A stretch of 64,000 nucleotides of DNA from Candidatus Vogelbacteria bacterium RIFOXYD1_FULL_44_32 (GTDB lineage: Bacteria; Patescibacteriota; Minisyncoccia; Phycocordibacterales; XYD1-FULL-46-19): assembly GCA_001823065.1 (NCBI GenBank), contig MHTJ01000003.1, forward strand, positions 181,460-245,459, written 5' to 3'. How positions within the stretch are numbered: the stretch's first letter is position 1; each line of letters begins with the position of its first letter. The notes under the pieces were generated by a model. The model was not told the origin of the DNA. It saw nothing but the letters and a program-made list of their open reading frames with translations, and made no database searches. Position numbers and translations under genes: made by a program. This document shows positions 2,010-58,005 of this stretch, piece by piece.

Positions 2010-4691
2010 ATGCCTCCTTTTCAAAAATTTACATCTAAAGCCCGAGAAGTTATCCGCAAGGCTCATGAGCTGGCCATTGAGCGGGGTCAAAACCATGTCA
2101 GCCCGACTCATTTGTTGGCGGCTTTACTGTTGCAGGAAGACAGCACCACGGTTTCGATTATTGAAAAGCTTGAGGTAGATAGTCTGATGCTGACCGACTA
2201 TATTTTAGACCTAATGGAAACCCCCGAGGGGGCGACCGTGGCCTCGCCCTCCTATCAGATTTATCTAACCCCAGAATTGGTCCGCATTTTTGATTCCGCT
2301 TCCAAGGTTGCTGATAGTTTAAGTGATGAATTTGTTTCGACCGAGCATTTACTTATATCACTACTTGATGTTTCGAGTGATGCCCGCGATATTTTAAATC
2401 GGTTTAAGGTTACCAAAGAGGTGGTGCTAAAGGTGGTCGAGGAACTGCGGGCCGGGGTGGTGAAGGATATTGACCAGCCCAAGAAAAATAAAGCGGTTGA
2501 AAAATTTACTCGTAATCTAACTGATTTAGCGCGGGCCGATAAGCTGGACCCAGTCATCGGTCGTGACCAGGAAATTCGACGGATTATGGAAATACTTTCG
2601 CGCCGGACTAAAAATAATCCGATCTTGATTGGCGAAGCGGGCACTGGTAAAACCGCGATTGCCGAAGGGCTGGCGGTCCGGATTGCTAAAGGCGATGTGC
2701 CGGAGTCACTAAAGGATAAAGAAATTGCTTCTCTGGATTTAGGCTTGCTAATTGCTGGGACTAAATATCGGGGCGAGTTTGAGGAACGATTAAAAAATTT
2801 GATTAAGGAGATTGAACGGGCCGAAGGACGGATTATTTTATTTATTGATGAAATGCATACATTGGTCGGCGCCGGTAGTGCCGAAGGGGCCATCGACGCT
2901 TCTAATATGCTAAAGCCGGCGCTGGCGCGGGGTGAATTGCGGGTGATCGGGGCCACCACACTGAAAGAATATCAAAAACATATTGAAAAGGATCAGGCCC
3001 TGACTCGGCGGTTTCAACCAATTCACGTCGAGGAGCCCACCGTGGAAGACGCGACAGCTATTTTGCGGGGCTTGAAGGACCGTTATGAAATCCATCATGG
3101 GGTACATATTACTGACGATGCTATTATATCCGCGGTCAATTTATCTTCACGTTATATTACCGATCGTTTTTTACCCGACAAAGCCATCGACTTGATCGAT
3201 GAAGCGGCGTCGGCCCTTCGGCTACAGTTAGAAAATAAACCGGCCGCGCTGGAAGACGCCGAGCGTAAAATTATGCGTCTGGAAGTTGAAAAAGAAGCGA
3301 TGAAAAAAGAAGTCGAGATCAATGACGACTCGACCGCTAAAACGCGGATTAAGGATATTGAGCAAGAAATTGGCAATTTGAAAGAAAAAACCTCGGAGCT
3401 GGAATTGCGCTGGAAAAATGAGAAGGAAATAATCGGCGAAGTGCGCGCTGACAAAGAAAAACTAGAGGGACTACGGCTCGAGGCCCAACAGGCCGAAATT
3501 CATGCCGAATTGACCAGAGCAGCCGAAATACGCTATGGCGAGATTCCGGTGCTAGAAAAGGAGATTAAGACCAAAGAAGCCAAATTAAAACGGTTGCAAA
3601 GCCAGCGGCGGATTTTAAAGGAAGAAGTGACCGAGGAAGAGATTGCCCGAGTGGTCGCCCGTTGGACGGGTATACCAGTGGTCCGCATGCTTGAAGAAGA
3701 AGCGGATAAATTGGCGCGGATGGAGGATGGACTAAAAGGTAAAGTGCGGGGCCAAGACGATGCGATTGAGAAAATTTCGGCCGCGGTCCGCCGGAGCCGG
3801 GCGGGTATTTCTGACCCCGACCGACCGATTGGTTCGTTTATTTTCCTTGGGCCAACCGGTGTCGGTAAGACCGAGCTCGCGAAAAAATTGGCGGAATTTA
3901 TGTTTAATGATGAAAAATCTTTAATCAGAGTGGATATGTCGGAATATATGGAAAAATATTCCGTGTCTAAAATGATTGGCGCCGCGCCGGGCTATGTCGG
4001 CTACGATGAGGGTGGGGCGCTCACTGAGCTGGTGCGCCATCGACCATATTCAGTTTTACTCTTTGATGAGATTGAGAAAGCTCATCCGGAGGTGTTTAAT
4101 ATATTATTGCAAGTTCTCGATAATGGCCGATTGACCGACTCGAAAGGACGGGTAGTGAATTTCAAAAATACCGTTATCATCTTGACTTCCAATTTGGGTA
4201 GTCAGTTTATGAACCGGTTTCAAAAGATTGGTTTTGGGACTGGTGGCGAAGAAGCGCAGTTTAGCGAAGTTAAAGAAAAAGTCATGGATACAGTTAAAGA
4301 AAGCTTCAAGCCGGAATTTTTGAATCGCCTCGATGATATTATTATTTTCAACCCGCTAAACGCCGAAGTAATACGCGATATTGTATCGATTCAACTAGAT
4401 ATCGTGCGTAAACGGCTTTTATTGAAAGGAATTAAGCTAGAAATTTCGGATGAGGTAGTTTCCTATTTAGCGAAGGAGGGATTTAATCCCGAGTATGGGG
4501 CCCGACCGCTAAAACGGCTGATTCAAAACCGCATTCTCAATAAAGTGGCGGAGTTTATTATTTCGCGGCGAGTGGAAAATGGGGGGATTGTGAAAGTCTC
4601 CATTCGCGACAACGAACCAGTCATTGAACTCAAAAAAAGCTATAGTGTGCGTGGTGGCAAGAAGACCAATGAGTACACGCAGACGGTGTAG
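2010..4691 (+). CDS. clpB: ClpB chaperone (AAA+ disaggregase)
   Basis: 893 aa. It has the Clp N-domain repeats, a D1 Walker A GEAGTGKTAIAEGLA, a long coiled-coil middle domain, a D2 Walker A GPTGVGKTELAK and the sensor-2 motif GARPLKR. Confidence 0.92.
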   Translation: MPPFQKFTSKAREVIRKAHELAIERGQNHVSPTHLLAALLLQEDSTTVSIIEKLEVDSLMLTDYILDLMETPEGATVASPSYQIYLTPELVRIFDSASKVADSLSDEFVSTEHLLISLLDVSSDARDILNRFKVTKEVVLKVVEELRAGVVKDIDQPKKNKAVEKFTRNLTDLARADKLDPVIGRDQEIRRIMEILSRRTKNNPILIGEAGTGKTAIAEGLAVRIAKGDVPESLKDKEIASLDLGLLIAGTKYRGEFEERLKNLIKEIERAEGRIILFIDEMHTLVGAGSAEGAIDASNMLKPALARGELRVIGATTLKEYQKHIEKDQALTRRFQPIHVEEPTVEDATAILRGLKDRYEIHHGVHITDDAIISAVNLSSRYITDRFLPDKAIDLIDEAASALRLQLENKPAALEDAERKIMRLEVEKEAMKKEVEINDDSTAKTRIKDIEQEIGNLKEKTSELELRWKNEKEIIGEVRADKEKLEGLRLEAQQAEIHAELTRAAEIRYGEIPVLEKEIKTKEAKLKRLQSQRRILKEEVTEEEIARVVARWTGIPVVRMLEEEADKLARMEDGLKGKVRGQDDAIEKISAAVRRSRAGISDPDRPIGSFIFLGPTGVGKTELAKKLAEFMFNDEKSLIRVDMSEYMEKYSVSKMIGAAPGYVGYDEGGALTELVRHRPYSVLLFDEIEKAHPEVFNILLQVLDNGRLTDSKGRVVNFKNTVIILTSNLGSQFMNRFQKIGFGTGGEEAQFSEVKEKVMDTVKESFKPEFLNRLDDIIIFNPLNAEVIRDIVSIQLDIVRKRLLLKGIKLEISDEVVSYLAKEGFNPEYGARPLKRLIQNRILNKVAEFIISRRVENGGIVKVSIRDNEPVIELKKSYSVRGGKKTNEYTQTV

Positions 4692-4716
4692 GGAATGAAT
4701 AATTTAGTTATGAGTC

Positions 4717-4753
4717 AAAAACCCCCGCGAGCCTAGGCTCGCGGGGGTTTTTG
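4717..4753 (+). terminator. Rho-independent terminator after clpB
   Basis: Perfect 12-bp stem CCCCCGCGAGCC/GGCTCGCGGGGG followed by TTTTT. Confidence 0.85.
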
Positions 4754-4793
4754 ACTCAGGACCATTTTTTGTGTAATAATACTCTTGTTTAAT

Positions 4794-4876
4794 GCGTCGG
4801 TGGTGGAGTGGTCAATCACAACAGACTGTAAATCTGTCGCCTTACGGCTACGCAGGTTCGAATCCTGCCCGGCGCA
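4794..4876 (+). tRNA. tRNA-Tyr (anticodon GUA), long variable arm
   Basis: Hand-folded. Acceptor GCGTCGG/CCGGCGC with discriminator A. Anticodon loop CUGUAAA. T-arm CAGGTTCGAATCCTG. 83 nt, no encoded CCA. Confidence 0.85.
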
Positions 4877-4903
4877 CAAAAAATCCCCGTTAGGGGATTT
4901 TGT

Positions 4904-5033
4904 GCGCCGGGAGCAAAGCACCTGCGTGCTTTGCGTCAGGATTCGAAAGACTTTTCGTTATCAAATATTTGCTAAGAATATTTGGTCGAAAAGTACTCGC
5001 CCCCGTAGGGGGAGAATCCTGCCCGGCGCACCA
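4904..5033 (+). ncRNA. tRNA-adjacent structured element E1 (candidate tRNA-mimic RNA ending in CCA)
   Basis: The 5' end GCGCCGG pairs with the 3' end CCGGCGC-A-CCA. The 3' terminal 17 nt copy the tRNA-Tyr 3' end. Internal 9-bp hairpin GCAAAGCAC-CTGC-GTGCTTTGC. Helix CTTTTCG/CGAAAAG. Conserved CGCCCCCGTAGGGGGAGA. It is homologous to E2 at 57844-57963, with compensatory changes in both helices. Confidence 0.5.
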
Positions 5034-5061
5034 ATGATACTTTATGTGTTATTATAAATAA

Positions 5062-5832
5062 ATGAAGAAAATAGTAAAAAGAAGAAAAATACTAATTCTC
5101 GGGTTAGGTATTATCCTTTTCGGATTATTGCTAGGGTACCGATTTATTTCCAGAGAAACCATTCCTTTGTCTATATATAAGGGTGAGTTTGGAGACTCCC
5201 GAGACAATCCTCAAGGGATAAGAAAAGTTCAAGGTAAATACATAAATTTGGATTCTAAAAACAAGCTATACAAAAGCAAGGATTTAGGAATATCAATCAT
5301 TGTCCCAGCAGATTATACTGATTCAACATCTGCAAATGATGATAACTCTGCATACTATGAGCGCCCTAATGGCGATTTTGCTTACACAACTTATAGACTG
5401 TTTCGTCCTTTAGAAAGTCAGAAAGATCAAAATGAGCTTTTATTTGTCTACCAAGGCATCAACATCTATAAAGCGGCTGTTAGGGAAGATAAAAACACAT
5501 TAGCATTGATTCAGAGTGGGGATAATTTTTATGATATTAATAATTCAATGTGGAGTCCTGAAAGACAAAAAATTAATAGTTATCTTAAACAGACAAATTA
5601 CAAAGTCTCATTAGTTAATATTGGAAATAAAAAATTTATTAAAGTAAGCTATGGCTTGTCTTACTGTTATGAAGGACCTTGCCCAGATGAAAACATCCAC
5701 TTCTATACGCTTAATAATAGGGGTGATATTTATTATGATATTAGTTATACGTCCTTCGAGACAAATACACCATGGCTTGTGCAAAAAGCAGAATATGAAA
5801 AAATCATTAAAAGTATTAAAATAATCGATTAG
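5062..5832 (+). CDS. Hypothetical protein with N-terminal signal anchor, AT-rich
   Basis: 256 aa ORF with an N-terminal hydrophobic helix. GC is clearly lower than the flanking genes. It lies immediately after tRNA-Tyr and E1. Confidence 0.55.
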   Translation: MKKIVKRRKILILGLGIILFGLLLGYRFISRETIPLSIYKGEFGDSRDNPQGIRKVQGKYINLDSKNKLYKSKDLGISIIVPADYTDSTSANDDNSAYYERPNGDFAYTTYRLFRPLESQKDQNELLFVYQGINIYKAAVREDKNTLALIQSGDNFYDINNSMWSPERQKINSYLKQTNYKVSLVNIGNKKFIKVSYGLSYCYEGPCPDENIHFYTLNNRGDIYYDISYTSFETNTPWLVQKAEYEKIIKSIKIID

Positions 5833-18987: not shown

Positions 18988-21447
18988 ATGGCTCACCCCC
19001 TCCGTCACATAGTCGTCGGCACTGAATTTTATCCGGCCTATCATCTGGAAAGTCTTTTTTCGCACCATCGGCGCCATCAGATTTTGAGGATTTTTACTAC
19101 TGTCACAACCATCCTAATCATCGTGGCGATTTTGCAATTTTTTCTAGCCTCTTTGTCACTACTGCCGACTGACCATTTCTTTATTTCTTGGTTGGCGGAA
19201 AAAGTTTTGGCTCTAATATTTATTTTTTTACCCTTAGCTACCGCCCTCTATTGTCTCGAAGCCTTTTTTCGCTCGTATTTTATGACGGAAGAAAAAAGAG
19301 TAGGTCAAACTTCACCTTTTGTTTATGAAGTTGGTCACATTTTATATACAGCCAAGAGTGAAGATATTTTGACCGCTTTCTTGTCAGCCATCTATGGTCG
19401 GAGGATTATGCTTAGACTAGGTCTGGGGCCGGCCGAGATTAAAAGTCTAATTATTGGTCGGGCTCTAACCAAAAGTGATTTACCAGTAGGCACGGCCGGG
19501 CCTCTAACCCTGGTTGAGCTGACTCAATATCTTTGGTCAACCAATAAAGATTTTTCCGATTTACTGTTTACGGCTGGAGTGCAGGCCACTGACCTAGTTG
19601 GGGCCAGTGCTTGGGTGGAGCGGGATCTAGAGGAAGAAAAGGAGGCAGAGTGTTGGTGGCGCCGGGATAAACTTGAAGCCATACCCAGTCTTGGCCGTGA
19701 TATGGCCTATGGTACAGTCTACACTCTAAAGCGCTATGGCGCGGAAATGAAGGTGCCAGCTAGTCTTATCCGCTTTGCGGCCACTCTGCGCCAAAAAGAA
19801 GTTAAACAACTAGAGACTACTTTACAGCGGGGGCGTGAGACCAATGCTCTGCTAGTGGGGGAGACGCATGAGGCCGCTTTAGAAACTTTACGGCAGTTGG
19901 CTAGTCGGATTAAGGCTGGCGTGGTTGGCCACGAGCTTGAACATCGGCGGGTTTTTGTTTTTGATACAGCTCTTTTTCTGTCTAGTTTTAAAAATAAAAG
20001 TGAAATGGAGTTGGAATTTCAAAAGGCCATGACCGAAGCGGTGCAAGCCGGCAACTTGATTTTAGTTCTAAACTCGCTGGAAACTTTACTTCATGGTTTT
20101 GAATCTATGGGCAGTGAGGCCGTGGCTTTGCTAGAGCCCTACTTAAAATCTTCTCGGCTCCAAATTGTGGGCATAGTTGAAAACGCTGTTTTTCAGCAGG
20201 CGATCGGGCCCGGGAGCGTCTTGTCTTCTTTATTTGAAAAAATTGTAGTCGCTAATCCGGAGCCGGCTGATTTGGTTTGGCTGTTGGAGCGAGCGGCAGG
20301 CCAGGCGGAAGTTGAACATAGTTTGTTTTTCACTTATCAATCACTGGTGACGATGATTGAGAGTGCCGTCCAATATTACAGTGGTGATAATATTTTAGAT
20401 AAAGCGCTTGATATTTTAACGGAAGTGTCTATTGCCCTAGCTAAAGCCGGTAAAACTGTGGTGAGTAAGGCCGATATTTTAGAGTTTGTCGGTAAAAAAA
20501 CCAATATCCCCCTCGGTGTAATTTCGCCTGAGGAAAAAACTAAGTTGTTGGATTTGGAAAAGATTTTACACGAGCGGGTTATTGGCCAAGACGAGGCGGT
20601 AAGAGCGGTAGCCGAAAGTTTACGACGGGCCCGCGCCGCCACAACCAATCCTAGCCGGCCCCTCGGGACCTTTCTTTTTCTTGGCCCGACTGGGGTGGGC
20701 AAAACCGAAACAGCCAAGGCCCTGGCCGCTGTATTTTTTAATGATGAAAATAAAATGTTGCGACTAGATATGTCCGAATATCAAGGGACCGAGGCCCTAG
20801 GGGCATTGGTCGGCTCCTTTGCCTCCGGCAAAGCGGGCTTGCTTTCCACGATGTTGCGGGAAAAACCTTATGCGGTATTACTTTTAGATGAATTTGAAAA
20901 AGCCTCAGCCGAAGTGCGTAATTTATTTTTGCAAATTCTCGACGAGGGGCGGTTTGCCGATGGGAGTGGTAAGCCAGTCAATGCCCGTAATACTATTATT
21001 GTGGCCACTTCTAATGCTGGCGCCGATTATATCTGGGAGAAAATAAGTGGCGGTGAAAGTACTGCTTCGATTAAAACTGAACTCATAGATCGGTTGGTCA
21101 AAGCGGGGACCTATACGCCAGAGCTTCTAAACCGCTTTGATGCCGTGGTGGTTTTTCATCCGTTGGTGGGCGAAAATTTGCAACAGGTGGCCGGTCTGAT
21201 GCTCGGCAAGCTGGCCGAGCGTCTGGCCAAGCAGGGGCTTAAACTTATCGTTACGCCCGAGCTATCTTTATATGTGGCTCAAAACGGGGCTGATCCAAAA
21301 TTTGGGGCCCGGCCAATGAATCGTTTTATTCAAGACAAAATTGAAGCGGTGATAGCGGAGGCAATTATTCGTGACAGCTTAGGGGCGGGGACCACCATTA
21401 CCATTACTGGTTTTGCGACTGGAAAATTGGTAGTGGCTAGGGTCTAA
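18988..21447 (+). CDS. Membrane-anchored Clp/Hsp100-like AAA+ ATPase with a degenerate D1 and an intact D2
   Basis: N-terminal TM helices. The D1-like region has lost Walker A (LLVGETHEAALETL instead of GEPGVGKTA). D2 is canonical: GPTGVGKTETAKALA, LLLDEFEKA, sensor-2 GARPMNR. Confidence 0.75.
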   Translation: MAHPLRHIVVGTEFYPAYHLESLFSHHRRHQILRIFTTVTTILIIVAILQFFLASLSLLPTDHFFISWLAEKVLALIFIFLPLATALYCLEAFFRSYFMTEEKRVGQTSPFVYEVGHILYTAKSEDILTAFLSAIYGRRIMLRLGLGPAEIKSLIIGRALTKSDLPVGTAGPLTLVELTQYLWSTNKDFSDLLFTAGVQATDLVGASAWVERDLEEEKEAECWWRRDKLEAIPSLGRDMAYGTVYTLKRYGAEMKVPASLIRFAATLRQKEVKQLETTLQRGRETNALLVGETHEAALETLRQLASRIKAGVVGHELEHRRVFVFDTALFLSSFKNKSEMELEFQKAMTEAVQAGNLILVLNSLETLLHGFESMGSEAVALLEPYLKSSRLQIVGIVENAVFQQAIGPGSVLSSLFEKIVVANPEPADLVWLLERAAGQAEVEHSLFFTYQSLVTMIESAVQYYSGDNILDKALDILTEVSIALAKAGKTVVSKADILEFVGKKTNIPLGVISPEEKTKLLDLEKILHERVIGQDEAVRAVAESLRRARAATTNPSRPLGTFLFLGPTGVGKTETAKALAAVFFNDENKMLRLDMSEYQGTEALGALVGSFASGKAGLLSTMLREKPYAVLLLDEFEKASAEVRNLFLQILDEGRFADGSGKPVNARNTIIVATSNAGADYIWEKISGGESTASIKTELIDRLVKAGTYTPELLNRFDAVVVFHPLVGENLQQVAGLMLGKLAERLAKQGLKLIVTPELSLYVAQNGADPKFGARPMNRFIQDKIEAVIAEAIIRDSLGAGTTITITGFATGKLVVARV

Positions 21448-22557: not shown

Positions 22558-22987
22558 TTTACTAATTCTGGTGGTGGTTATTATTTTGGTCGCCATTTGG
22601 TGGTTTAGTTTACGGGCTCCAACGGCCGATAAAGAAATAGTCAGTCTAGGTAAAGTTAATATTCCCGTGGAAGTAAGTCGGACACCCACCGAGTGGGGCC
22701 AAGGTTTGTCGGGGCGGAAGTCACTACCGGCTGGCGAGGGGATGCTCTTTGTTTTTCCGGCCCCCGCAATTCAAGAATTTTGGATGCCCGATATGCATTT
22801 CCCGCTGGATATTGTCTGGATTACTGGTGGCCAGGTGGTGGGGATAGAGGCCAATGTCAGCAATGATTTTGACCCCCAGCACCCCAAGTATTACCACTCG
22901 CCCGTGCCGGTGGAATATGTGCTTGAGTTGAACGCGGGGTTTATGGCCAAAAATGGGCTGAAGGTAGGGACAGAAGTAAAAATTTAA
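22547..22987 (+). CDS. DUF192 family protein (COG1430-like)
   Basis: Signal/TM start and the conserved DMHFPLDIVWI motif. Confidence 0.55.
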   Translation: MRNNLLILVVVIILVAIWWFSLRAPTADKEIVSLGKVNIPVEVSRTPTEWGQGLSGRKSLPAGEGMLFVFPAPAIQEFWMPDMHFPLDIVWITGGQVVGIEANVSNDFDPQHPKYYHSPVPVEYVLELNAGFMAKNGLKVGTEVKI

Positions 22988-23046
22988 ATTTGTAATTTGC
23001 CCCGTTAGATTGCGTTAAGCCCTTAAATATTGCAGAATATCGATAT

Positions 23047-23117
23047 TGCCGGATCGTCTAAAGGTAGGACATGAGCCTTTGAAGCTCAGTATCTTGGTTC
23101 GATTCCAAGTCCGGCAG
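23047..23117 (+). tRNA. tRNA-Gln (anticodon UUG)
   Basis: U1:A72 acceptor (TGCCGGA/TCCGGCA, discriminator G). Anticodon loop CUUUGAA. T-arm TTGGTTCGATTCCAA. Confidence 0.8.
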
Positions 23118-23140
23118 CTAGGAGTTTTTTGTAAAAAACG

Positions 23141-23262
23141 ACGAGACTGTCCGGCTTGGAATCGAACAGGAGTGGGGTCGGGAGAACATATGGTCTCCCG
23201 TGGAGGAAGGATTGGGAAAACCGAGGGTTTCCCAGGGGTGAGATATCCAAGTCCGGTAGCCA
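23141..23262 (+). ncRNA. Diverged tRNA-adjacent structured element E3 (same family as E1/E2), ending ...TCCAAGTCCGGTAG-CCA
   Basis: The 5' part GTCCGGCTTGGAATCGAAC is the reverse complement of the tRNA-Gln 3' end. The 3' part copies the tRNA-Gln 3' end plus CCA. Internal GTCGGGAG... and GGGAAACC/GGTTTCCC-AGGGG-GAGA-ATCC resemble the E1/E2 core. Confidence 0.3.
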
Positions 23263-23279
23263 ACTCGCGCTAGCACAAA

Positions 23280-23630
23280 ATGCTTAGCTTAAATACAATC
23301 ATGAAAAATAATTATGGTTTACCAAAAACAGAATTGCAAAAAATCTTTGAAAGAGACAAGGTTTGTGTCTACTGTAAAAAGAAAATGCTTGGACACATTT
23401 CAGATAACCCTCGTAGCGATTGGTATACTATTGAGCATTTAAATTATTTGCCACCATGGAATAACCCAAGCACCGTTACTATTTGTTGTTGGGGTTGTAA
23501 CTCTAGTCGTGGAAATAAAAAGATTAGGGATTGGTTTAAAACCCCTTATTGTTTAGATAAAAATATTAATGAAAAAACCGTATCAAAGTTTGTGTATAGA
23601 TATATATCAGATGTTGAGGATAGGAAATAA
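23280..23630 (+). CDS. HNH endonuclease, AT-rich
   Basis: CVYCKKKM...TIEHL...ICCWGCNSSRGNK gives the CxxC...H...N...CxxC HNH pattern. About 33% GC. Confidence 0.6.
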   Translation: MLSLNTIMKNNYGLPKTELQKIFERDKVCVYCKKKMLGHISDNPRSDWYTIEHLNYLPPWNNPSTVTICCWGCNSSRGNKKIRDWFKTPYCLDKNINEKTVSKFVYRYISDVEDRK

Positions 23631-23833
23631 GGAGACGATCGAAGACAACAAAATAATGATGAAATTATTAGCTTTTACACTTAGAAAGAGTCATTCCGAG
23701 GAGGGTCAAAATGGTAGAATTAGAATAGCTAAAAAATCTTTGTGGGGTAAGGTATAAAAATATCCGAATCCGATGAGGCCAGCCAACGCGAGCCAGGTTT
23801 AACCCCAAAAATCATCGCAATCTATATTAATTC

Positions 23834-24763
23834 ATGTCGACACACAAAACTACAGTAGATGAGAAGGTCGTGTTAGATTTTCTACAAGAGAATTTTTCTA
23901 ATCAAATTTCTAATTTTGAAGTTATTGTTGGTGGCGAGGGTTCGCAAGCTTATAGCTTCAATGTATTGGCAGACCAATACGTCATTAGAATAAATAAACA
24001 TTGGACCCGAGGATTTAAAAAAGACGAGTATGCTTTTACTCATTTTGTCTCACCTTCACTACCTATTCCAAAAGTAATAAAAATTGGAAAAATCAATGAA
24101 AATCTGCGTTTTTGCATATCACAAAAAGTAGGGGGAAAAATTTTAAATGAATTTTCTAGTGGAGAACTAGTCCCGCTATTACCCCAATTGTTTCAGGTTT
24201 TGGACACCATCCATACTATAGATATAAGCCAAACAACAGGCTACGGAAAATGGGATGCCGAAGGAGTGGGAGAAAAAACAAGTTGGAAGGAATATATTTT
24301 GAGTGTTGATACTTTTGCAAAGGGTGAGGATGGCAAGCCGAGTCTGTTTGAAACGACTTTTCTGGAAAAAGATTTTTGGGATAAAACTTATACTAGACTT
24401 GCCGACTTGGTAAAATATTGTCCTAAAGAAAGATTTTTAGTCCATGGTGATTATGGCTTTAATAATGTTTTGTCGGATGGCAATAAAATCACCGGAGTAA
24501 TTGATTGGGAAGGTTCGATATATGGGGATTTTCTTTTTGATATAGCTTGGCTCAGTTTCTGGTCTTACAATCTAGATTATCAGAACTTGTATTTGGAATA
24601 CTCAAAAAATAAAGGGGTTGAGATTCAAAATTTTAATGAACGGATGCTTTGCTACAAGTTGCATATTGGCCTAGGGAGCTGTAGTTTCTTTGCATATTCG
24701 GGCCAGGAGGAAAAGTACAGAAAAGCCAAGGATGCTATAGAAAAATTGTTGAATTTGAATTAG
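23834..24763 (+). CDS. Aminoglycoside phosphotransferase, hygromycin-B 4-O-kinase (APH(4)/Hph)-like
   Basis: Block-by-block similarity to E. coli Hph as I recall it: GEGSQAYSF/GEESRAFSF, YVIRIN/YVLRVN, FKKDEYAFTHFVSPSLPIPKV/FYKDRYVYRHFASAALPIPEV, CISQKVGG/CISRRAQG, FLVHGDYGFNNVLSDGNKITGVIDWEGSIYGD/HLVHADFGSNNVLTDNGRITAVIDWSEAMFGD. Confidence 0.8.
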   Translation: MSTHKTTVDEKVVLDFLQENFSNQISNFEVIVGGEGSQAYSFNVLADQYVIRINKHWTRGFKKDEYAFTHFVSPSLPIPKVIKIGKINENLRFCISQKVGGKILNEFSSGELVPLLPQLFQVLDTIHTIDISQTTGYGKWDAEGVGEKTSWKEYILSVDTFAKGEDGKPSLFETTFLEKDFWDKTYTRLADLVKYCPKERFLVHGDYGFNNVLSDGNKITGVIDWEGSIYGDFLFDIAWLSFWSYNLDYQNLYLEYSKNKGVEIQNFNERMLCYKLHIGLGSCSFFAYSGQEEKYRKAKDAIEKLLNLN

Positions 24764-24792
24764 TCTAAATAATATTAAATAAATTAAACCTT

Positions 24793-25317
24793 ATGATCAC
24801 CCCCGAACAAGAAGCGTGGATAAATACTCTGTCCGACCGGACTATTTCTATTTTCCCATATGACCCAAAAGCAGAAGAGCTGTTTAAGGTGGTTAGCGAT
24901 AAAATACACGATCTGTTAGGGGAAGATGTGCTAGTAGAACATAGTGGTTCCACTATTTTCGGTATTGCCGGCCAAGATGAAATAGATGTCGCGGTGGTGG
25001 CGTCTAAGGCCCAATTTGCCGACTATATTCCCAAACTTGAAACGATATTTGGTCCAGTGCGCTCAAGCTACCCCGACCGGGCACGATTTGAGGTGAAAGA
25101 GGCTGGCAAGAAAATAGATTTGAAAATTGTTGATGTGGACCACCCCAACTACAGAGAGGGAAAAATTTTTGAAGACTATCTCAAGACCCACCCCGCCGAC
25201 CTTGAATACTACAAAGTTTTCAAAGAGGAGTCCGATGGTCTCACCTTAAAAGAATATTACCGCCGAAAAATCGAATTTACTAATGAAATATTAGCTAAGG
25301 CGGGAGTTCAGATTTAA
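24793..25317 (+). CDS. GrpB-family nucleotidyltransferase-fold protein
   Basis: VEHSGSTIFGIAGQDEIDVAVV matches the GrpB (COG2320) hGSTxxxGxxxxxxIDI motif. 174 aa. Confidence 0.55.
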   Translation: MITPEQEAWINTLSDRTISIFPYDPKAEELFKVVSDKIHDLLGEDVLVEHSGSTIFGIAGQDEIDVAVVASKAQFADYIPKLETIFGPVRSSYPDRARFEVKEAGKKIDLKIVDVDHPNYREGKIFEDYLKTHPADLEYYKVFKEESDGLTLKEYYRRKIEFTNEILAKAGVQI

Positions 25318-50140: not shown

Positions 50141-51118
50141 ATGAAAACTCGGGTCGCAGTTATAAGGGGTGGCAAAGGGGCCGAATACGAGGTCTCGCTT
50201 AAAAGTGGCGCGAGCGTGCTCTCCGCTTTGCCCGAAGATAATTACCAACCAGTCGATGTCCTTATTACTCGTGATGGGCAGTGGCATGCCGGTGGCCTAC
50301 CCATTCGTCCCCAAGATCTTAGTAGATTTGCTGATGTGGCTTTTATTGCTCTACACGGTGAATATGGTGAAGACGGCACGATCCAAAAAATATTAGACGA
50401 CCTAAATTTTTCTTATACTGGTTCTGGTCACATTGCTTCGGCTTTGGGTATGGACAAGGTGGCTTCCAAAAAAATATTTGCTGAGGCCGGAATAAAAGTA
50501 CCCTATGGTTTACTACTCTCCCGGGCGGAAATAACGGAAGCGGCCAAAAACATTTTTAATAAAATACCACCACCTTGGGTGATAAAGCCCAATGATAAGG
50601 GTTCTTCGGTCGGGCTATATTTTGCGCGAACTTTTGCCGAGCTGGCCGGAGCTATCGACCAAGCTTTTCGCGAGGCCGACTCGGTCTTGGTCGAAGAATA
50701 TATTCGGGGGCGTGAAGCCACTTGTGGGGTCATTGACGATTTTCGACGTGAAAAATTTTATGCGCTTTTGCCTATTGAGATAGTGCACCCCGCCACTTGT
50801 CCAGTTTGGAATTACCAAGATAAATATTCTGGTGCAACTCAGGAATTGTGTCCGGGGCGTTTTTCTGATGAGGAGAGCCAAGAAATCCAAAAGTCCGCTA
50901 GACTAATTCACGAAGTACTGGCTTTGAGACACTATTCCCGTAGTGATTTTATTATTTCACCTCGCGGGGTCTATGCGCTAGAGGTCAACACCTTGCCCGG
51001 GCTGACTCCAGAATCACTTTTACCCAAGTCTATTTCGGCGGTGGGTTGCGATTATGGCCATTTTTTAGACCACTTGGTTACCCTTGCGCTCTCTGATAGA
51101 AAGGGTATGATGGCATAA
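50141..51118 (+). CDS. ddl: D-alanine--D-alanine ligase
   Basis: KTRVAVIRGGKGAEYEVSLKSG N-domain, ATP-grasp motifs, C-terminal EVNTLPGLT. Confidence 0.9.
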   Translation: MKTRVAVIRGGKGAEYEVSLKSGASVLSALPEDNYQPVDVLITRDGQWHAGGLPIRPQDLSRFADVAFIALHGEYGEDGTIQKILDDLNFSYTGSGHIASALGMDKVASKKIFAEAGIKVPYGLLLSRAEITEAAKNIFNKIPPPWVIKPNDKGSSVGLYFARTFAELAGAIDQAFREADSVLVEEYIRGREATCGVIDDFRREKFYALLPIEIVHPATCPVWNYQDKYSGATQELCPGRFSDEESQEIQKSARLIHEVLALRHYSRSDFIISPRGVYALEVNTLPGLTPESLLPKSISAVGCDYGHFLDHLVTLALSDRKGMMA

Positions 51119-51137
51119 TCATTTTAACTATATACCA

Positions 51138-51443
51138 ATGAAAGCCACTACTAAAAATATAATTATTTATGCGGTTTTGGTTCTTATTATTGCCAGTAGT
51201 TCTACTTATGTGTGGTGGAGGGCGAGGGTCCAACCCGATCAGGTGTTGGCGCGGATTGAGGCCAAATTGGTAACTTTTGAGCAAGAAATAGCTGTCTGTA
51301 AGAAGGAAACAGAGGTAAAAAAACTAGAAAAATGTAGTGACCGGATGAAGGAAATTTCCACAGAGCTTGATAATTTCCAAACTGATTTGACTGGGATTAA
51401 GACAAAAAAAGAAACAGCCAGCACGACAGATAAAATTAAATAA
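51138..51443 (+). CDS. Small anchored coiled-coil protein, hypothetical
   Basis: TM plus coiled coil. Followed by a terminator. Confidence 0.4.
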   Translation: MKATTKNIIIYAVLVLIIASSSTYVWWRARVQPDQVLARIEAKLVTFEQEIAVCKKETEVKKLEKCSDRMKEISTELDNFQTDLTGIKTKKETASTTDKIK

Positions 51444-51446
51444 CCC

Positions 51447-51479
51447 AAAAAAACCGGCTTCGGCCGGTTTTTTTGGGTT
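51447..51479. terminator. Bidirectional terminator
   Basis: AAAAAAACCGGC-ttcg-GCCGGTTTTTTTGGG. Confidence 0.85.
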
Positions 51480-51481
51480 TG

Positions 51482-51553
51482 TGCTCTCGGCCGGAGTCGA
51501 ACCGGCATTACCAGCTTCGGAGGCCAGCGTTCTATCCATTAAACTACGAGGGC
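51482..51553 (-). tRNA. tRNA-Arg (anticodon CCG)
   Basis: The reverse complement reads GCCCTCGTAGTTTAATGGATAGAACGCTGGCCTCCGAAGCTGGTAATGCCGGTTCGACTCCGGCCGAGAGCA. Anticodon loop CUCCGAA. T-arm GCCGGTTCGACTCCGGC. One C:A mismatch and two G:U pairs in the stems. Confidence 0.7.
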
Positions 51554-51568
51554 AAATAGTATTGTTTA

Positions 51569-52345
51569 CTAATTATTAGGTAAATTTTTAAAATCTCCGC
51601 TAGTCAGAATATAAATCAAGAGAATAAAACATACAATAGAAACAATTATTAAACTTATAATCCCTACATTAATTGATAGAATAATTAATAATAATAGATA
51701 AATTATTTGGGTAAATTGTGACCATTTTTTTCTTTTTACAATGCCTATTATTGTTATGATCGAAATAATTAACGAAAATATAATACTAACGAAAATCAAT
51801 AACGGATATAATTCGATACCATATCTAAAACTATAAGTCATCATCGATAAAGCCATAATTAATGAAAATATAAAAAACCAGACATCTAAAACTAAAATTG
51901 CTTTAGCCCCTTTAGGTATGCCGGCATAGGTGGGTATATTTTCACCTATTTTTTCTGCTGTAAATAAACCCCAAAGTAGACATATTAAAGAAATTAATAC
52001 AGAGAATCCGATAAATGGCCAAACAACAAAAATAGCAAGAAATCCACCGCCAAACTCACTAGAGTTAATAATCAATATTGAGAGGAAAGATCCTACAAAA
52101 GACAACCAACAAAACACCATGGAAAGTTTATAGGATAATTTATCAAATTGGATATCAGAAAATAATGCCAGGGAGTATATAATTGTAAAAAAAATCAATA
52201 ATGCCAGGGGAATATTTATATTTGGATTTTCCAGCCACCTCGGTACTGGCTGGGAATGTCCAATAATCTCATAAATAATAGACAAGATAAGTAAAACAGC
52301 AACCAAAAGATAATTAAACAAAAAATTTATTTTACTTTTTAACAT
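51569..52345 (-). CDS. Polytopic membrane protein, very AT-rich (about 28% GC), hypothetical
   Basis: Seven to eight hydrophobic helices. The start was moved to the internal Met (MLKSKINF...), because the listed N-terminus overlaps tRNA-Ala. Confidence 0.55.
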   Translation of the reverse strand: MLKSKINFLFNYLLVAVLLILSIIYEIIGHSQPVPRWLENPNINIPLALLIFFTIIYSLALFSDIQFDKLSYKLSMVFCWLSFVGSFLSILIINSSEFGGGFLAIFVVWPFIGFSVLISLICLLWGLFTAEKIGENIPTYAGIPKGAKAILVLDVWFFIFSLIMALSMMTYSFRYGIELYPLLIFVSIIFSLIISIITIIGIVKRKKWSQFTQIIYLLLLIILSINVGIISLIIVSIVCFILLIYILTSGDFKNLPNN

Positions 52346-52362
52346 ATTTTTTATGTTTCTCT

Positions 52363-52438
52363 TGGTGGACCCTATCGGATTCGAACCGATGACCTCCTCA
52401 TTGCAAATGAGGCGCTCTACCAACTAAGCTAAGGGCCC
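52363..52438 (-). tRNA. tRNA-Ala (anticodon UGC), CCA encoded
   Basis: The reverse complement reads GGGCCCTTAGCTTAGTTGGTAGAGCGCCTCATTTGCAATGAGGAGGTCATCGGTTCGAATCCGATAGGGTCCACCA. Confidence 0.85.
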
Positions 52439-52478
52439 AATTTAATTATAAACCTTTATAATACATCATTTTTAATAC

Positions 52479-52618
52479 CTGGCGCCTCATTTGGCAAATG
52501 AGTGTCACAAGTATTTTTCTGCTGAAAAATCTCGCGACCCCACCTCGCGCCGTCGCGCTCCGGTCTTGCACTTGGGTCCCACCCCAAGCTCACTCTACCA
52601 ACTAAGCTAAGGGCCCAA
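52479..52618 (-). pseudogene. tRNA-derived fragment/pseudo-tRNA upstream of tRNA-Ala(UGC)
   Basis: 52593-52618 is an exact 26-nt copy of the tRNA 5' end (acceptor plus D-arm), followed by an anticodon-arm-like hairpin TTGGG-GTGGGAC-CCCAA. There is no T-arm or 3' acceptor. The internal helix GATTTTTC/GAAAAATAC resembles the E1/E2 core helix. Confidence 0.4.
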
Positions 52619-52683
52619 CTTTTAACCTACACATATTAGCAATCTCGTATTGAAAAATCAATCCTGTTTGGTAGAATTGGGAT

Positions 52684-52998
52684 ATGAAAATATTTAAAGA
52701 ATTTAAAGAGTTTGCTACACGGGGGAACGTGGTGGACCTAGCTATTGGTGTCGTGATTGGCGCTTCGTTTAGCTCTATTACCAATTCTTTGGTGACTGAT
52801 ATTATTAACCCACTACTTGGTTTAGTTACCAACAAAGTAGACCTATCTGAACAGGCGATTGTCTTGCAACAAGCGGGAGCTAGTTCTACCCCCGTCATCT
52901 TGGGCTATGGCAACTTTTTGAGCAATGTTTTAAATTTTTTGATCATTTCTTTCGTTTTATTTTTGGTGATAAAACGGGTTAACAAATTGGCTAAGTAG
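52684..52998 (+). CDS. mscL: Large-conductance mechanosensitive channel
   Basis: MKIFKEFKEFATRGNVVDLAIGVVIGASF... is collinear with E. coli MscL. 104 aa. Confidence 0.9.
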   Translation: MKIFKEFKEFATRGNVVDLAIGVVIGASFSSITNSLVTDIINPLLGLVTNKVDLSEQAIVLQQAGASSTPVILGYGNFLSNVLNFLIISFVLFLVIKRVNKLAK

Positions 52999-53059
52999 TT
53001 GGTTGGGGATATTGTGCCTATTTACAAATAGCTAGATATATATTACTATCTTGGCTGGC

Positions 53060-53315
53060 GTTGATTTGGTCTTGTTTTGTTCCCGCACCGCGGGGGAAGG
53101 ATTTATATGGAGGTTGATATAAGCTCGGAGGGTGGTCAGATGGCTCAACCAGATCTCTCTGGCCACCAAAAAAGTACTCTGGCCTGGCTATTTCACCAGG
53201 TCACAGGTCAATTGGTGGGGCGTCTACATTCAGAGGTCCCACCCCCAGCAGATTGACGACAACTCATATGAGCTGTCGGCAAAAAGCCCCGGACACCCGG
53301 GGCTTTTCTTTTTTC
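53060..53315 (+). ncRNA. Candidate structured RNA or riboswitch-like leader with its own terminator, between mscL and the ABC exporter operon
   Basis: At least four hairpins: GGTGGTCAGA...TCTGGCCACC, GGTCAAT..GTGGGG/CCCCAC..ATTGAC, CGACAACTCATATGAGCTGTCG, and the terminator AAAAAGCCCCGG-acac-CCGGGGCTTTTCTTTTTTC. The overlapping 80-aa ORF is unconvincing. Confidence 0.3.
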
Positions 53316-53407
53316 AATATTTTAGCTATACTCATTTGGTTACTATTTCGATAGTTATTCTCCTCGGGTTTTAGGTCGCCGTTGGTGCGATTATATTCAT
53401 TATTTAA

Positions 53408-54190
53408 ATGAAATTATTTTTTTCTGTTGTTAAATTCAATTGGTTAAAAATCCTTGCTTATCCATTTGAAATAATTGCTTTTTTTGCTTGCCGACTTATT
53501 GCCTTGGGCATGTTGGCTTTGTTTTGGTATGCCTTTGCTCAAAGCACTGGTGGGACCATGGATTTTAAACCACTAGTGGCTTATTTTTTGGTTGCGGCGG
53601 CTATAAAGGATCTTACTTTTTCCACCGATTTTAAGTTTGGCCGTTATATTCAAAAAATAATTATGCAGGGTGAAATAAGTAATTATTTTATTAAACCAGT
53701 TAAAACCGTTCCATTTTTATTTTTTTCCTATGCTGGCGAAAATGGTATGGGTATAGTTTATGCTTTTATATCTCTTACTATTGGCTTAGTGGTTTTGCCG
53801 CCAGCTAGTTGGGTTAATATTTTAGCTTTTATAATATTTCTTTTTATTGCTCTTTTTGTATCGGTGGCCTTCAATACTTTAATTGGCATTATTAGTTTTC
53901 ATTCCACCGAGGGGTCGGGTTTTCGCAACGCAATTAATCATGTCATTAAAATACTATCGGGAGCAATTATACCCCTGACTTTGTTTCCGATTGGTATAAG
54001 GGAAATTATTTTACTTTTGCCATTTCCGGCACTAGTGTTTACCCCAGCCTATGTTTTGCAAAATAATTTGAGTGGTGGAGAAATGTTCTTTACTTTTAGT
54101 GTGTCGCTTGGCTGGGCTATTGTTTTGTTTTTCTTGACTCATTATTTATGGCGTTATTCTGTAAAAAAATATGAAGGAGTTGGTATCTAA
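53408..54190 (+). CDS. ABC-2 family transporter permease
   Basis: Six TM. The operon is shared with a second permease and an ABC ATPase, with overlapping start/stop. Confidence 0.6.
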   Translation: MKLFFSVVKFNWLKILAYPFEIIAFFACRLIALGMLALFWYAFAQSTGGTMDFKPLVAYFLVAAAIKDLTFSTDFKFGRYIQKIIMQGEISNYFIKPVKTVPFLFFSYAGENGMGIVYAFISLTIGLVVLPPASWVNILAFIIFLFIALFVSVAFNTLIGIISFHSTEGSGFRNAINHVIKILSGAIIPLTLFPIGIREIILLLPFPALVFTPAYVLQNNLSGGEMFFTFSVSLGWAIVLFFLTHYLWRYSVKKYEGVGI

Positions 54191-54983: not shown

Positions 54984-54992
54984 TCAAAAAAT

Positions 54993-57803: not shown

Positions 57804-57843
57804 TGGAAGAAACTCTTTTTATTTCTTCCGAGCCAATGTTGTT

Positions 57844-57963
57844 TGGTGGACCCACGGGGAGTCTCCCCCTACGGGGGCGGGTACTTTTCCGTCTCATTTC
57901 ATTCGACAAGGAAAAGTCTTTCGACTTCCCGACGTGAGTGAAGCAGTTCACTCACTTGGGCCC
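57844..57963 (-). ncRNA. tRNA-adjacent structured element E2 (homologue of E1), ending ...CCCCGTGGGTCCA-CCA with a G3:U70 acceptor
   Basis: The reverse complement reads GGGCCCA-AGTGAGTGAA-CTGC-TTCACTCAC-GTCGGGAAGTCGAAAGACTTTTCC-...-GGAAAAGTACCCGCCCCCGTAGGGGGAGACTCCCCGTGGGTCCACCA. The ends are copied from, and complementary to, the adjacent tRNA-Ala(GGC). Confidence 0.5.
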
Positions 57964-58005
57964 ACCCTACAAAAATGGCTCACCGAAAGATCGGTTAGCT
58001 CATTT

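Follow-up and report, generated by a model that had tools for sequence, protein, structure and literature searches.

Immediately downstream of a tRNA-Gln gene in Candidatus Vogelbacteria bacterium RIFOXYD1_FULL_44_32, three genes on the + strand encode an HNH nuclease, a protein resembling aminoglycoside kinases (APH) and a GrpB-family protein, in DNA that is partly poor in GC. The question raised by this locus is whether the three genes arrived together, as one genomic island carrying enzymes of antibiotic detoxification, or whether they have separate histories. It was addressed in a 64,000-nt stretch of the genome (hereafter, the window) and in homologous loci of other genomes. The host is a tiny-genome groundwater bacterium.

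The region downstream of tRNA-Gln

The tRNA-Gln(UUG) gene (23047..23118, + strand), detected by ARAGORN and scoring 61 bits in Rfam, does not encode its CCA end. It is followed by an A/T-rich hairpin, the inverted repeat GTTTTTTGTAAAAAAC (23119..23146, + strand), on which a long, imperfect palindrome running from the 3' end of tRNA-Gln to an inverted copy of that end is centred, and by a structured element, E3 (23144..23262, + strand), recognized from its tRNA-end copies, a covariance model (R2) and its relatives. Within E3 lie the tRNA-Gln 3' end in inverted orientation (23147–23167), two inner hairpins and, in direct orientation, a repeat of the 16 terminal nucleotides of tRNA-Gln (23245–23260), after which comes CCA (23260–23262). 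Two relatives, L012 and L018, retain E3, and its inner hairpins show two compensatory changes there; model R2 matches the window, both of these loci and a further one (L083). No second copy of E3 was found in the window with blastn or nhmmer, and searches for known RNA families at E3 returned only the tRNA and noise, either at the Rfam gathering threshold or at an E-value threshold over 22950–23900. The majority of the 77 loci anchored on dnaX in Paceibacteria relatives have kept the order dnaX–(DUF192)–tRNA-Gln, and tRNA-Gln together with the structured E3 is a conserved anchor. ARAGORN, Rfam and the tRNA-end copies thus bear out the location given in the initial annotation, directly 3' of tRNA-Gln and an E-like element.

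Beyond this anchor, GC content falls to 0.33–0.38 at about 23250–25000, versus 0.44–0.50 in the flanks (500-nt windows). The AT-rich islet described at tRNA-Gln is therefore real as a dip in GC, but it is shorter than the 2 kb claimed: it covers about 1.5 kb (23280–24790), with a GC of 0.343, whereas the window averages 0.435 (sd 0.034, z = −2.66), and is among the lowest 0.2% of 1.5-kb windows. Gene by gene, GC and GC3 amount to 0.31 and 0.27 for the nuclease, 0.36 and 0.32 for the kinase, and 0.44 and 0.45 for GrpB, the last being the window average. Moreover, no homologue of any of the three genes occurs 3' of tRNA-Gln among the 77 dnaX-anchored loci. The segment 23280–24790 hence combines the two marks of an island, atypical composition and absence from these loci, while the composition of GrpB is native.

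The ORF of the nuclease can be extended upstream to an ATG at 23280, and its homologues begin at the second ATG; judging from these homologues, the true start is probably at 23301, which gives a 109-aa protein (23301..23630, + strand) like the homologues. The latter (n = 113, 45–88% identity, about 109 aa) are scattered through Parcubacteria genomes in about eight distinct genomic contexts. The ORF has no match in Pfam or NCBIfam, and its other profile matches are weak (PHROG HNH, E = 7e-5; PADLOC PtuB, E = 5e-4; a PDB profile, E = 0.005; further, phage HNH families, TIGR02646 HNH and DraIII). However weak these matches, the C-x2-C / EH / N / C-x2-C-N motifs are invariant in 25 homologues (C22/C25, E45-H46, N48 and C63/C66-N67, within RD..C.YC, EHLN and CC.SCN.SR), the AlphaFold (AF2) model has a pLDDT of 91.5, and its top 50 Foldseek matches in the PDB are almost all HNH domains (probability up to 1.00, TM about 0.5). 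By motifs and model, the ORF is a predicted nuclease of the beta-beta-alpha-metal HNH fold. It shares with free-standing HNH nucleases (PtuB of Septu, McrA, the HNH domain of Cas9) this fold, the CCCC zinc site, the EH...N...CN motif and the occurrence in many unrelated genomic contexts. Unlike them, it is a bare domain of about 109 aa with no partner domain, it lies outside any intron or intein and no conserved partner gene adjoins it, and its family is unusually well conserved across Parcubacteria (55–88% identity), even if unrecognized by Pfam. The gene may encode a selfish or defence-type nuclease, functionally uncoupled from the kinase. An assignment to a defence system was rejected, since PADLOC returned only the weak PtuB match and nothing for the kinase or GrpB; so was a phage origin, with only distant relatives in IMG/VR (43% identity for the nuclease, on one contig; 32–36% for the kinase, on four contigs).

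The place held by the nuclease gene, between E3 and a leader that precedes the kinase gene, is filled differently in related genomes: by a 173-aa ORF in L012 and by a DUF4145-like gene in L007, the same leader motif following all three occupants. The slot is, in other words, variable, with the nuclease gene as one among several genes that can fill it. The leader itself (23688..23805, + strand), delineated by alignment with relatives and by pattern searches, is common to the window and L007, and partly to L012, while the genes before it differ. Its substitutions between the window and L007 are conservative in one frame. A peptide-coding remnant was discarded as an explanation of the leader owing to an in-frame stop in L012. 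Likewise rejected was an att-like copy of the E3/tRNA end at 23762–23796, which would make the nuclease gene a cassette with target duplication (p about 0.03–0.05, uncorrected, in local alignment with shuffled controls).

Three genes with three histories

The history of the kinase gene (23834..24763, + strand, 309 aa) is best read in L007, the nearest relative, whose DnaX is 86% identical to that of the window. Synonymous divergence between the two loci is saturated for the neighbouring genes (dS of 1.9 for DnaX, 2.1 for DUF192 and 2.9 for GrpB) and other core segments are 65–78% identical, versus a dS of 0.19, a dN of 0.035 and 93.9% nucleotide identity for the kinase gene. Sliding identity, boundary alignments and dS delimit a block (23806..24813, + strand) that is about 94% identical to L007, with sharp edges and flanks at 45–70%, and that spans a promoter-like site (23799–23828, a candidate whose score is not above chance), the kinase gene in full and ~20 nt at the start of grpB. 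In addition, the GC3 of the kinase gene fits that of its homologues in lower-GC Parcubacteria (0.31–0.34), not that of the host (0.45–0.54). These sequence comparisons show a replacement or acquisition of the kinase unit (about 1 kb) that is recent by comparison with the divergence from the nearest relative. They involve one relative, a MAG contig ending 368 nt upstream of the kinase gene, and the 94% block may possibly be an assembly chimera in that contig. At 65–70% identity, the flanks are rather too dissimilar for ordinary homologous recombination to account for the replacement.

Could the genes nevertheless be native and vertically inherited, the low GC reflecting a local mutational or expression bias and the similarity of the kinases a very strong purifying selection? 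The kinase–GrpB pair does lie near DUF192/dnaX in the closest relative too, and GrpB has diverged like the core genes. Yet protein-level purifying selection cannot reduce synonymous divergence tenfold (0.19 vs. 1.9–2.9), nor can it produce sharp block edges that include non-coding DNA, and more distant relatives have no kinase or GrpB homologue 3' of tRNA-Gln, which leaves vertical inheritance hardly tenable. Horizontal acquisition, proposed for the whole islet, thus holds for the kinase gene, but not for the islet as one unit.

The third gene (24793..25317, + strand) encodes a 174-aa protein of the GrpB family (UPF0157, nucleotidyltransferase fold), which matches the family model PF04229 at full length (positions 2–158 of 159) with 65.2 bits (cut-off 25.5) and an E-value of 1e-17, and has 94 homologues, mostly in Paceibacterota; it is 100% identical to a protein of Candidatus Vogelbacteria RIFOXYD1_FULL_44_32. 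It is an older resident gene and was not recently acquired. Sequence searches found no solved close relative. To our knowledge, the GrpB family has no established substrate, so to call it an antibiotic nucleotidyltransferase is only an analogy drawn from the fold. A conserved kinase–GrpB operon was rejected by a Pfam census, in which the 62 downstream and 66 upstream neighbours of kinase homologues are spread over 74 and 77 Pfam families, respectively, none dominant, and no partner recurs among the 128. GrpB stands beside a kinase homologue only in L007 and, distantly, in L099. As a two-enzyme module, the pair is not conserved: of about 77 loci, it occurs in a single one besides this lineage.

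Altogether, the three genes are a mosaic and not one acquired unit, as had been supposed: GrpB has a native composition and the divergence of an old neighbour, and the nuclease gene sits in a variable slot. This bears directly on the reading of the locus as a classical tRNA island, gained in a single acquisition through a site-specific integrase acting at the 3' end of tRNA-Gln. Like tRNA-linked islands, for which partial tRNA copies are typical att sites (PMC9897764), the locus has low-GC, atypical accessory genes directly 3' of a tRNA gene and, close by, part of the tRNA 3' end repeated in direct orientation (23245–23260). Unlike them, it lacks any integrase or recombinase within 10 kb on either side (genes and Pfam) or among the ORFs located at 20–29 kb of the window, as well as any distal repeat of the tRNA-Gln 3' end at the right edge, at or beyond 25318. 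Its sole tRNA-end copy lies upstream of all three genes, 127 nt from the tRNA, together with an inverted copy and conserved hairpins, while the apparent second copy before the kinase gene does not exceed chance expectation (p ~0.04, uncorrected). Given also that the cargo has three histories and three compositions, we regard a classical island as very unlikely. We find it rather probable, instead, that the region 3' of tRNA-Gln is a recombination-prone accessory slot, in which the anchor formed by tRNA-Gln and E3 is followed by a variable gene, the conserved leader, the kinase gene with its promoter-like site, and the resident GrpB gene.

Elements derived from tRNA 3' ends

Two other elements of the E type occur in the same window, E1 (4899–5036, + strand) and E2 (57841–57968, − strand), and E3 had been described as a diverged member of their family. 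In architecture this is correct, as all three lie downstream of a CCA-less tRNA gene and a hairpin, have a closing stem made of the complement and a copy of the last 16–21 nt of the tRNA, contain two inner hairpins, and carry CCA after the tRNA-end copy. In terms of homology it is not: a covariance model of E1 and E2 (R1) had no match over 23144–23262 (E <= 10, filters on or off), on which ground E3 was rejected as an E1/E2 homologue. In contrast to E1 and E2, E3 is devoid of hairpin A, has different inner hairpins and linkers, is far less stable (z of −1.2/−3.0 vs. −8.8/−5.6), and has relatives of its own, those matched by model R2, apart from E1/E2.

The recurrence of E1/E2-type elements near kinase homologues hints at a site-specific mechanism that lies outside the accessory-slot reading favoured above. 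The E elements might be the footprint or a working part of an insertion mechanism in Paceibacteria, so far undescribed, that brings in accessory genes at tRNA 3' ends; in that case, the HNH nuclease would serve as the endonuclease, and the APH(4)-like gene would be among the cargoes. Several observations are consistent with such a mechanism. The elements are built from the adjacent tRNA 3' end, as complement plus copy, and in this genome the copy bears the CCA that is absent from the tRNA genes themselves; a tRNA-end copy is found downstream of 8 of 97 tRNAs and upstream of none; 13 of the 41 pairs are compensatory between E1 and E2; and the E1/E2 model matches 4 of the 80 kinase-homologue loci (0.52 Mb) vs. 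0 of the 77 dnaX-anchored loci (1.2 Mb). Moreover, one locus (L088) presents a tRNA-Met, an E element, an E3-like unit and an HNH homologue, in the same order as the window, another (L107) has tandem E units after tRNA-His, and AT-rich ORFs lie downstream of both E1 and E3.

Against it, HNH homologues mostly lack an adjoining tRNA or E element, the E element is absent at most kinase homologues, E3 has no detectable homology to E1 and E2, and the enrichment statistics are post hoc and based on few events. We also know of no mechanism that duplicates 16–21 nt of its target in both orientations, inverted and direct. An insertion mechanism in which the nuclease and the kinase gene would play these parts is for these reasons doubtful. 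The same low expectation applies to the broader formulation, that the E elements belong to an undescribed insertion or recombination system directed at tRNA 3' ends and making variable slots for stand-alone genes; in these slots, accessory genes such as, here, the nuclease and the APH(4)-like kinase would accumulate and move between lineages. Alternatively, the E elements could be RNAs resembling tRNA minihelices, with a function of their own. An origin from group I tRNA introns was rejected, as those described in Patescibacteria interrupt the anticodon loop (PMC13011429) and no intron model matched. IMG/VR does not contain the E1/E2 core. It is this repeated co-occurrence of structured, tRNA-end-derived elements with accessory genes that we see as the more interesting lead, since it could reveal a mode of gene gain in a phylum poor in classical mobile elements.

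Fold and probable substrate of the kinase

Profiles and structures agree with the gene identities first proposed, that is, an HNH fold, a GrpB-family protein and a kinase whose nearest characterized relative is APH(4)-Ia (Hph). The kinase matches PF01636 (E = 7e-19), and its closest solved relative is hygromycin-B 4-O-kinase (PDB 3w0m, E = 1.9e-46), the next APH having E > 1e-4; the two proteins are 33% identical over 280 aa (E = 5e-51), with a TM of 0.86. Its AF2 model (pLDDT 94) superposes on APH(4)-Ia structures with a TM of 0.84–0.89 and an rmsd of 2.5 Å, while the next fold matches have an E-value of ~1e-11. R52, H204, D206, N211, D224 and W225, which are invariant in 28 family members, are identical to the catalytic and Mg/nucleotide residues R49, H196, D198, N203, D216 and W217 of Hph, and the HGDYGFNN and IDW motifs are present. 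From sequence and model, the protein is thus predicted to have the fold of aminoglycoside kinases, with the H-x-D-x4-N loop and the Mg-binding Asp. With ATP or GTP as donor of the gamma-phosphate, it would phosphorylate a hydroxyl group on a small molecule resembling an aminoglycoside or aminocyclitol, which would thereby be inactivated.

The substrate pocket bears on whether that molecule is hygromycin B. The putative hygromycin contacts of Hph include D126, S201, N202, N203, N231, W235, W238, Q273 and D285. Of these, D126, N202, N203 and W235 are kept (as D130, N210, N211 and W243), while the others are changed (S201F, N231W, W238N, Q273S and D285K), the alignment being uncertain towards the C-terminus; across the family, the W238 position is variable and the Q273 position is S or A. 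A lysine at the D285 position is unexpected in a pocket that binds a polycationic aminoglycoside. Because these putative pocket positions differ from Hph, hygromycin B itself is probably not what the kinase phosphorylates, and with these changes, including the lysine at the D285 position, the substrate could be a non-antibiotic metabolite.

The competing reading, in which the kinase is a true hygromycin-B 4-O-kinase that makes the CPR cell resistant to hygromycin B, for instance against aminoglycoside-producing neighbours or hosts, seems to us improbable, though not extremely so. It draws on the fact that APH(4)-Ia is by far the closest relative in sequence and fold, on the four contacts kept, two of which, with D198, have been mutated in deposited Hph structures (D198A, N202A and N203A; 3w0p, 3w0r and 3w0q), on the name given by JGI to the homologues, and on the gene's recent spread, as is usual for resistance genes under selection. 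These points are opposed by an identity of only 33%, by the replacement of 5 of the ~10 putative contacts, D to K included, with substitutes conserved family-wide, and by the curated model NF000107 (APH_4_Ia) of NCBIfam, which is the best family but is matched with 158 bits (E = 3.5e-46) vs. a cut-off of 725 bits. Of the label "hygromycin-kinase-like", the kinship to Hph consequently stands, and the specificity for hygromycin is not supported.

The kinase has about 170 close homologues, nearly all in Patescibacteria and many of them labelled hygromycin-B 4-O-kinase by JGI, and automatic labels of this sort call for caution throughout the clade, because the substrate pocket appears to differ from that of Hph. 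Since these homologues have no conserved neighbour either, the gene is not an unusual cargo for the group, contrary to what had been assumed for a reduced-genome bacterium, and AR-like genes have been reported in 99.75% of CPR genomes (PMC8651080). It may spread among Patescibacteria as a stand-alone selectable unit. In the ordinary reading, the locus is one well-documented case of an already suspected exchange of enzymes of the antibiotic-modifying type among ultra-small Patescibacteria, for which the evidence is unusually clean (a 1-kb block with a synonymous divergence tenfold lower than that of its neighbours). If it is true that the clade inactivates an aminoglycoside, it would amount to an extensive reservoir, in the environment, of a type of resistance without known origin. 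The kinase shares the fold of APH(4)-Ia (PDB 3TYK, 3W0M–3W0S) over its full length as well as the catalytic residues, but it is shorter (309 vs. 341 aa), and it is chromosomal in Patescibacteria, whereas APH(4)-Ia is plasmid-borne in Enterobacteria.

Composition and mosaic structure of the tRNA-Gln locus

The initial annotation had described an AT-rich islet beside a tRNA-Gln gene and suggested its horizontal acquisition. The islet exists and its gene calls are right: on the forward strand, tRNA-Gln(UUG) (23047-23118, identified with ARAGORN and Rfam) and the structured element E3 are followed by an HNH ORF of 116 or 109 aa (23280 or 23301 to 23630), a kinase ORF of 309 aa (23834-24763) and a GrpB ORF of 174 aa (24793-25317). 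The window derives from a Patescibacteria genome; its GrpB protein shows 100% identity to one from Candidatus Vogelbacteria bacterium RIFOXYD1_FULL_44_32, and the scaffold that carries the kinase gene is of the Rifle type, 495 kb long. In the GC profile of the window, GC drops to 0.33-0.38 across about 23250-25000, and the stretch 23280-24790 (GC 0.343, z = -2.66) is among the lowest 0.2% of 1.5-kb windows. The AT-rich span is nevertheless limited to about 1.5 kb and leaves GrpB outside, with GC/GC3 values of 0.31/0.27 for the HNH gene, 0.36/0.32 for the kinase gene and 0.44/0.45, i.e., the window average, for the GrpB gene. A second AT-rich region of the window (50800-55000, GC 0.34-0.39) lies around tRNA-Arg (51481-51553) and tRNA-Ala(TGC) (52363-52438).

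With dnaX as an anchor, 77 related loci were fetched. Because most of them carry tRNA-Gln(UUG) a few kb downstream of dnaX, the position of this tRNA gene is considered ancestral, and homologues of the HNH, kinase and GrpB genes were found there in none of the 77 loci. In the closest informative relative (L007, GCA_030916795.1, contig JAUPVZ010000041; DnaX 86% identical), the leader, the kinase and GrpB genes lie beside DUF192/dnaX but inverted, with an ASCH gene and one of 401 aa after them, and a DUF4145-like gene occupies the place of the HNH gene. The window also holds, between dus and dnaX (18988-21447), an 819-aa ClpB-like AAA+ gene without counterpart in L007, whose dus and dnaX genes are direct neighbours.

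Between the window and L007, the kinase gene shows 93.9% nucleotide identity, a dS of 0.19 and a dN of 0.035, dS being 2.9 for GrpB, 1.9 for DnaX and 2.1 for DUF192, and further core segments are 65-78% identical. A sliding comparison of the two loci delineated a sharp-edged block of ~94% identity (about 23806-24813) within flanks that are 45-70% identical; its left edge falls ~30 nt 5' of the kinase start codon, where a promoter-like site did not rise above chance, and its right edge ~20 nt inside grpB. Together, the low dS and the sharp block indicate a hitherto unnoticed event, an exchange of the kinase gene, and of this gene alone, that is recent compared with the divergence of the window and L007 lineages. 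GrpB was already resident before these lineages split. Horizontal acquisition is thus retained for the kinase gene, but not for the HNH, kinase and GrpB genes as one unit.

A more distant relative (L012, DnaX 72% identical) carries tRNA-Gln, E3, an unrelated AT-rich ORF of 173 aa and then the same leader motif, at which point the contig ends. This difference from the window between E3 and the leader marks the intervening position as a variable slot. The locus is not one island but an accessory slot of mosaic make-up. No integrase was found within 10 kb, nor a second copy of the tRNA-Gln end at the right edge of the islet; a candidate tRNA-end copy upstream of the kinase gene was not significant. 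The leader itself is a ~100-nt motif (…GGTCAAAATGGTAAACTGAAAATCA…GAAACCCTTGTGGGAC…) located at 23688-23805 in the window, 236-340 in L007 and 14410-14520 in L012, which precedes the kinase gene in the first two and follows the unrelated ORF in the third, the preceding genes differing in each genome. Its substitutions between the window and L007 appear conservative in one frame, with a stop in L012.

Identity of the encoded proteins

The kinase matches the Pfam APH family (E 7e-19), and its best solved relative in a PDB sequence search is APH(4)-Ia, the hygromycin-B 4-O-kinase Hph (E 1.9e-46, residues 13-282), all remaining APHs having E > 1e-4. BLASTP gave 33% identity to Hph over 280 residues, using an Hph sequence that agrees with the alignment of the PDB search. 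The AlphaFold model (pLDDT 94.2) superposes on APH(4)-Ia structures with a TM of 0.84-0.89 and an rmsd of 2.5 A, the next folds being fructosamine-3-kinase and APH(2'') (E about 1e-11). The block-wise similarity to Hph noticed previously is thus genuine, and the protein is not a generic kinase devoid of APH(4) blocks. Sequence and model place it in the APH(4)-like clade, as a predicted small-molecule O-kinase.

Its substrate is another matter. With the NCBI AMR model for APH(4)-Ia, the protein reaches 158 bits, whereas the cut-off is 725. An alignment of Hph and 28 family members showed that the residues for catalysis and cofactor binding, R49, H196, D198, N203, D216 and W217 (Hph numbering), are invariant. 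We take the hygromycin-contact positions of Hph to be D126, S201, N202, N231, W235, W238, Q273 and D285; the residue types of this list fit the Hph sequence at those numbers, and part of it is consistent with the mutants (D198A, N202A, N203A) for which structures have been deposited. In the same alignment, D126, N202 and W235 are kept, S201, N231, Q273 and D285 are replaced by family-conserved residues (F, W, S/A and K, respectively), and W238 is variable. Judging from these positions, the substrate is probably not hygromycin B itself, and specificity for this antibiotic is doubtful.

The small HNH ORF has no match in Pfam or NCBIfam. Its family comprises 113 proteins of about 109 aa (45-88% identity), none of which has a Pfam domain; the few named members come from MAGs of the Parcubacteria group (Pacebacteria, Kaiserbacteria and Zambryskibacteria). 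Homologues of the ORF occur in at least eight unrelated genomic contexts. Three motifs are invariant (R-D-x2-C-x-Y-C, E-H-L-N and C-x2-C-N-x-S-R), weak profile matches point to PHROG HNH (7e-5), PtuB (5e-4) and TIGR02646 HNH (0.005), and the PDB structural matches of the model (pLDDT 91.5) are nearly all HNH domains (Cas9 HNH, McrA, Cap5, DraIII). Fold, motifs and profiles agree with the first call, so that the 109-aa protein can be regarded as a predicted HNH-fold nuclease.

Likewise, the GrpB assignment was confirmed, the protein being a member of PF04229 over its full length, with 94 homologues, mostly from Paceibacterota (40-75% identity), and no close solved relative in a sequence search.

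Distribution and genomic context of the kinase family

The kinase has 171 homologues (E <= 1e-10, 40-93% identity), many of which already bear the JGI label 'hygromycin-B 4-O-kinase', while those with a named source are from Patescibacteria (Parcubacteria, Paceibacterota, Taylorbacteria, Levybacteria, Spechtbacterales) or unclassified bacteria. Moreover, AR-like genes have been reported in 99.75% of 4,062 CPR genomes, 10% of them aminoglycoside-related (Maatouk et al., PMC8651080). The cargo, initially deemed unusual for a reduced genome, is hence typical for the phylum. Across 80 metagenomic loci, the immediate downstream neighbours of kinase homologues represent 74 Pfam families and the upstream ones 77, none of them dominant: the kinase gene is an accessory gene that stands on its own. 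Neither does the proposed module of two detoxifying enzymes generalize, since GrpB adjoins the kinase in L007 and L099 alone. In L099, a distant GrpB homologue (28% identity; 4394-4879, - strand) lies divergently beside a 51%-identical kinase homologue, the sole other such adjacency.

Other surroundings were also observed. In L010 (10001-17100) and L009 (7551-14650), kinase homologues that are 67-69% identical lie in stretches with many other genes for handling small molecules (a second APH, glyoxalase/bleomycin-resistance-like, SMR, LysE, PMSR, HIT and methyltransferase). In L098 (5981-6647), the gene following a 62%-identical kinase homologue encodes a LAGLIDADG-type endonuclease beside tRNA-Leu(CAA), i.e., another selfish nuclease and tRNA adjoining this kinase family.

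tRNA-derived elements beside accessory genes

In E3 (23144-23262), the 3' end of tRNA-Gln recurs in inverted form (23147-23167), followed by two inner hairpins and a direct copy of the last 16 nt of the tRNA (23245-23260), then CCA. Two other elements of the window are built alike and are very stable: E1 (4899-5036, + strand, 3' of tRNA-Tyr; z -8.8) and E2 (57841-57968, - strand, 3' of tRNA-Ala(GGC); z -5.6) have a closing stem made of the complement and a copy of the last 16-21 nt of the adjacent tRNA. In all three, CCA follows the distal copy, and the adjacent tRNA genes lack an encoded CCA; among the seven tRNA genes of the window, only tRNA-Trp and tRNA-Ala(TGC) encode it. E1 and E2, for which there is no Rfam match, differ by compensatory changes in 13/41 pairs, including 7/9 in one hairpin. 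Their joint covariance model does not match E3, even unfiltered, and E3 has a separate set of relatives (L012, L018, L083), among which two compensatory changes occur; therefore, its description as a diverged member of the E family fits the architecture but not the homology. Over all fetched loci, a copy of the last 14 nt of the tRNA (at most one mismatch) occurs within 350 nt downstream for 8 of 97 tRNAs, and upstream for none. Directly 3' of E1 lies an AT-rich ORF (5062-5832, 256 aa, GC 0.32; no PADLOC family match), which parallels the AT-rich genes after E3.

The E1/E2 model matches none of the 77 dnaX-anchored loci and four loci fetched only for their kinase homologues (L100, L102, L107, L109). 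In L102 the element immediately precedes the kinase gene, and tandem units separate tRNA-His from the kinase gene in L107 and L109. In a Pacebacteria MAG (L088, 4577-5333), which the model also matches, tRNA-Met is followed by a terminator hairpin, the E1/E2-type element scoring 52 bits, an E3-like unit that terminates with a degenerate tRNA-Met 3'-end copy, and a homologue of the HNH protein (74% identity across 101 aa), the same order as that of tRNA-Gln, E3 and HNH in the window. These co-occurrences, albeit few and post hoc, suggest a link between E elements, HNH gene and kinase gene worth pursuing, in which the elements may mark, or make, the landing places of such accessory genes.

In the related metagenomic contigs L107 (3517-3830) and L109 (4195-4440), each tandem unit downstream of tRNA-His has an inverted T-arm (CTGGGAATCGAA) at its start and a partial tRNA 3'-end copy at its end, the kinase homologue lying ~1.2 kb further on.
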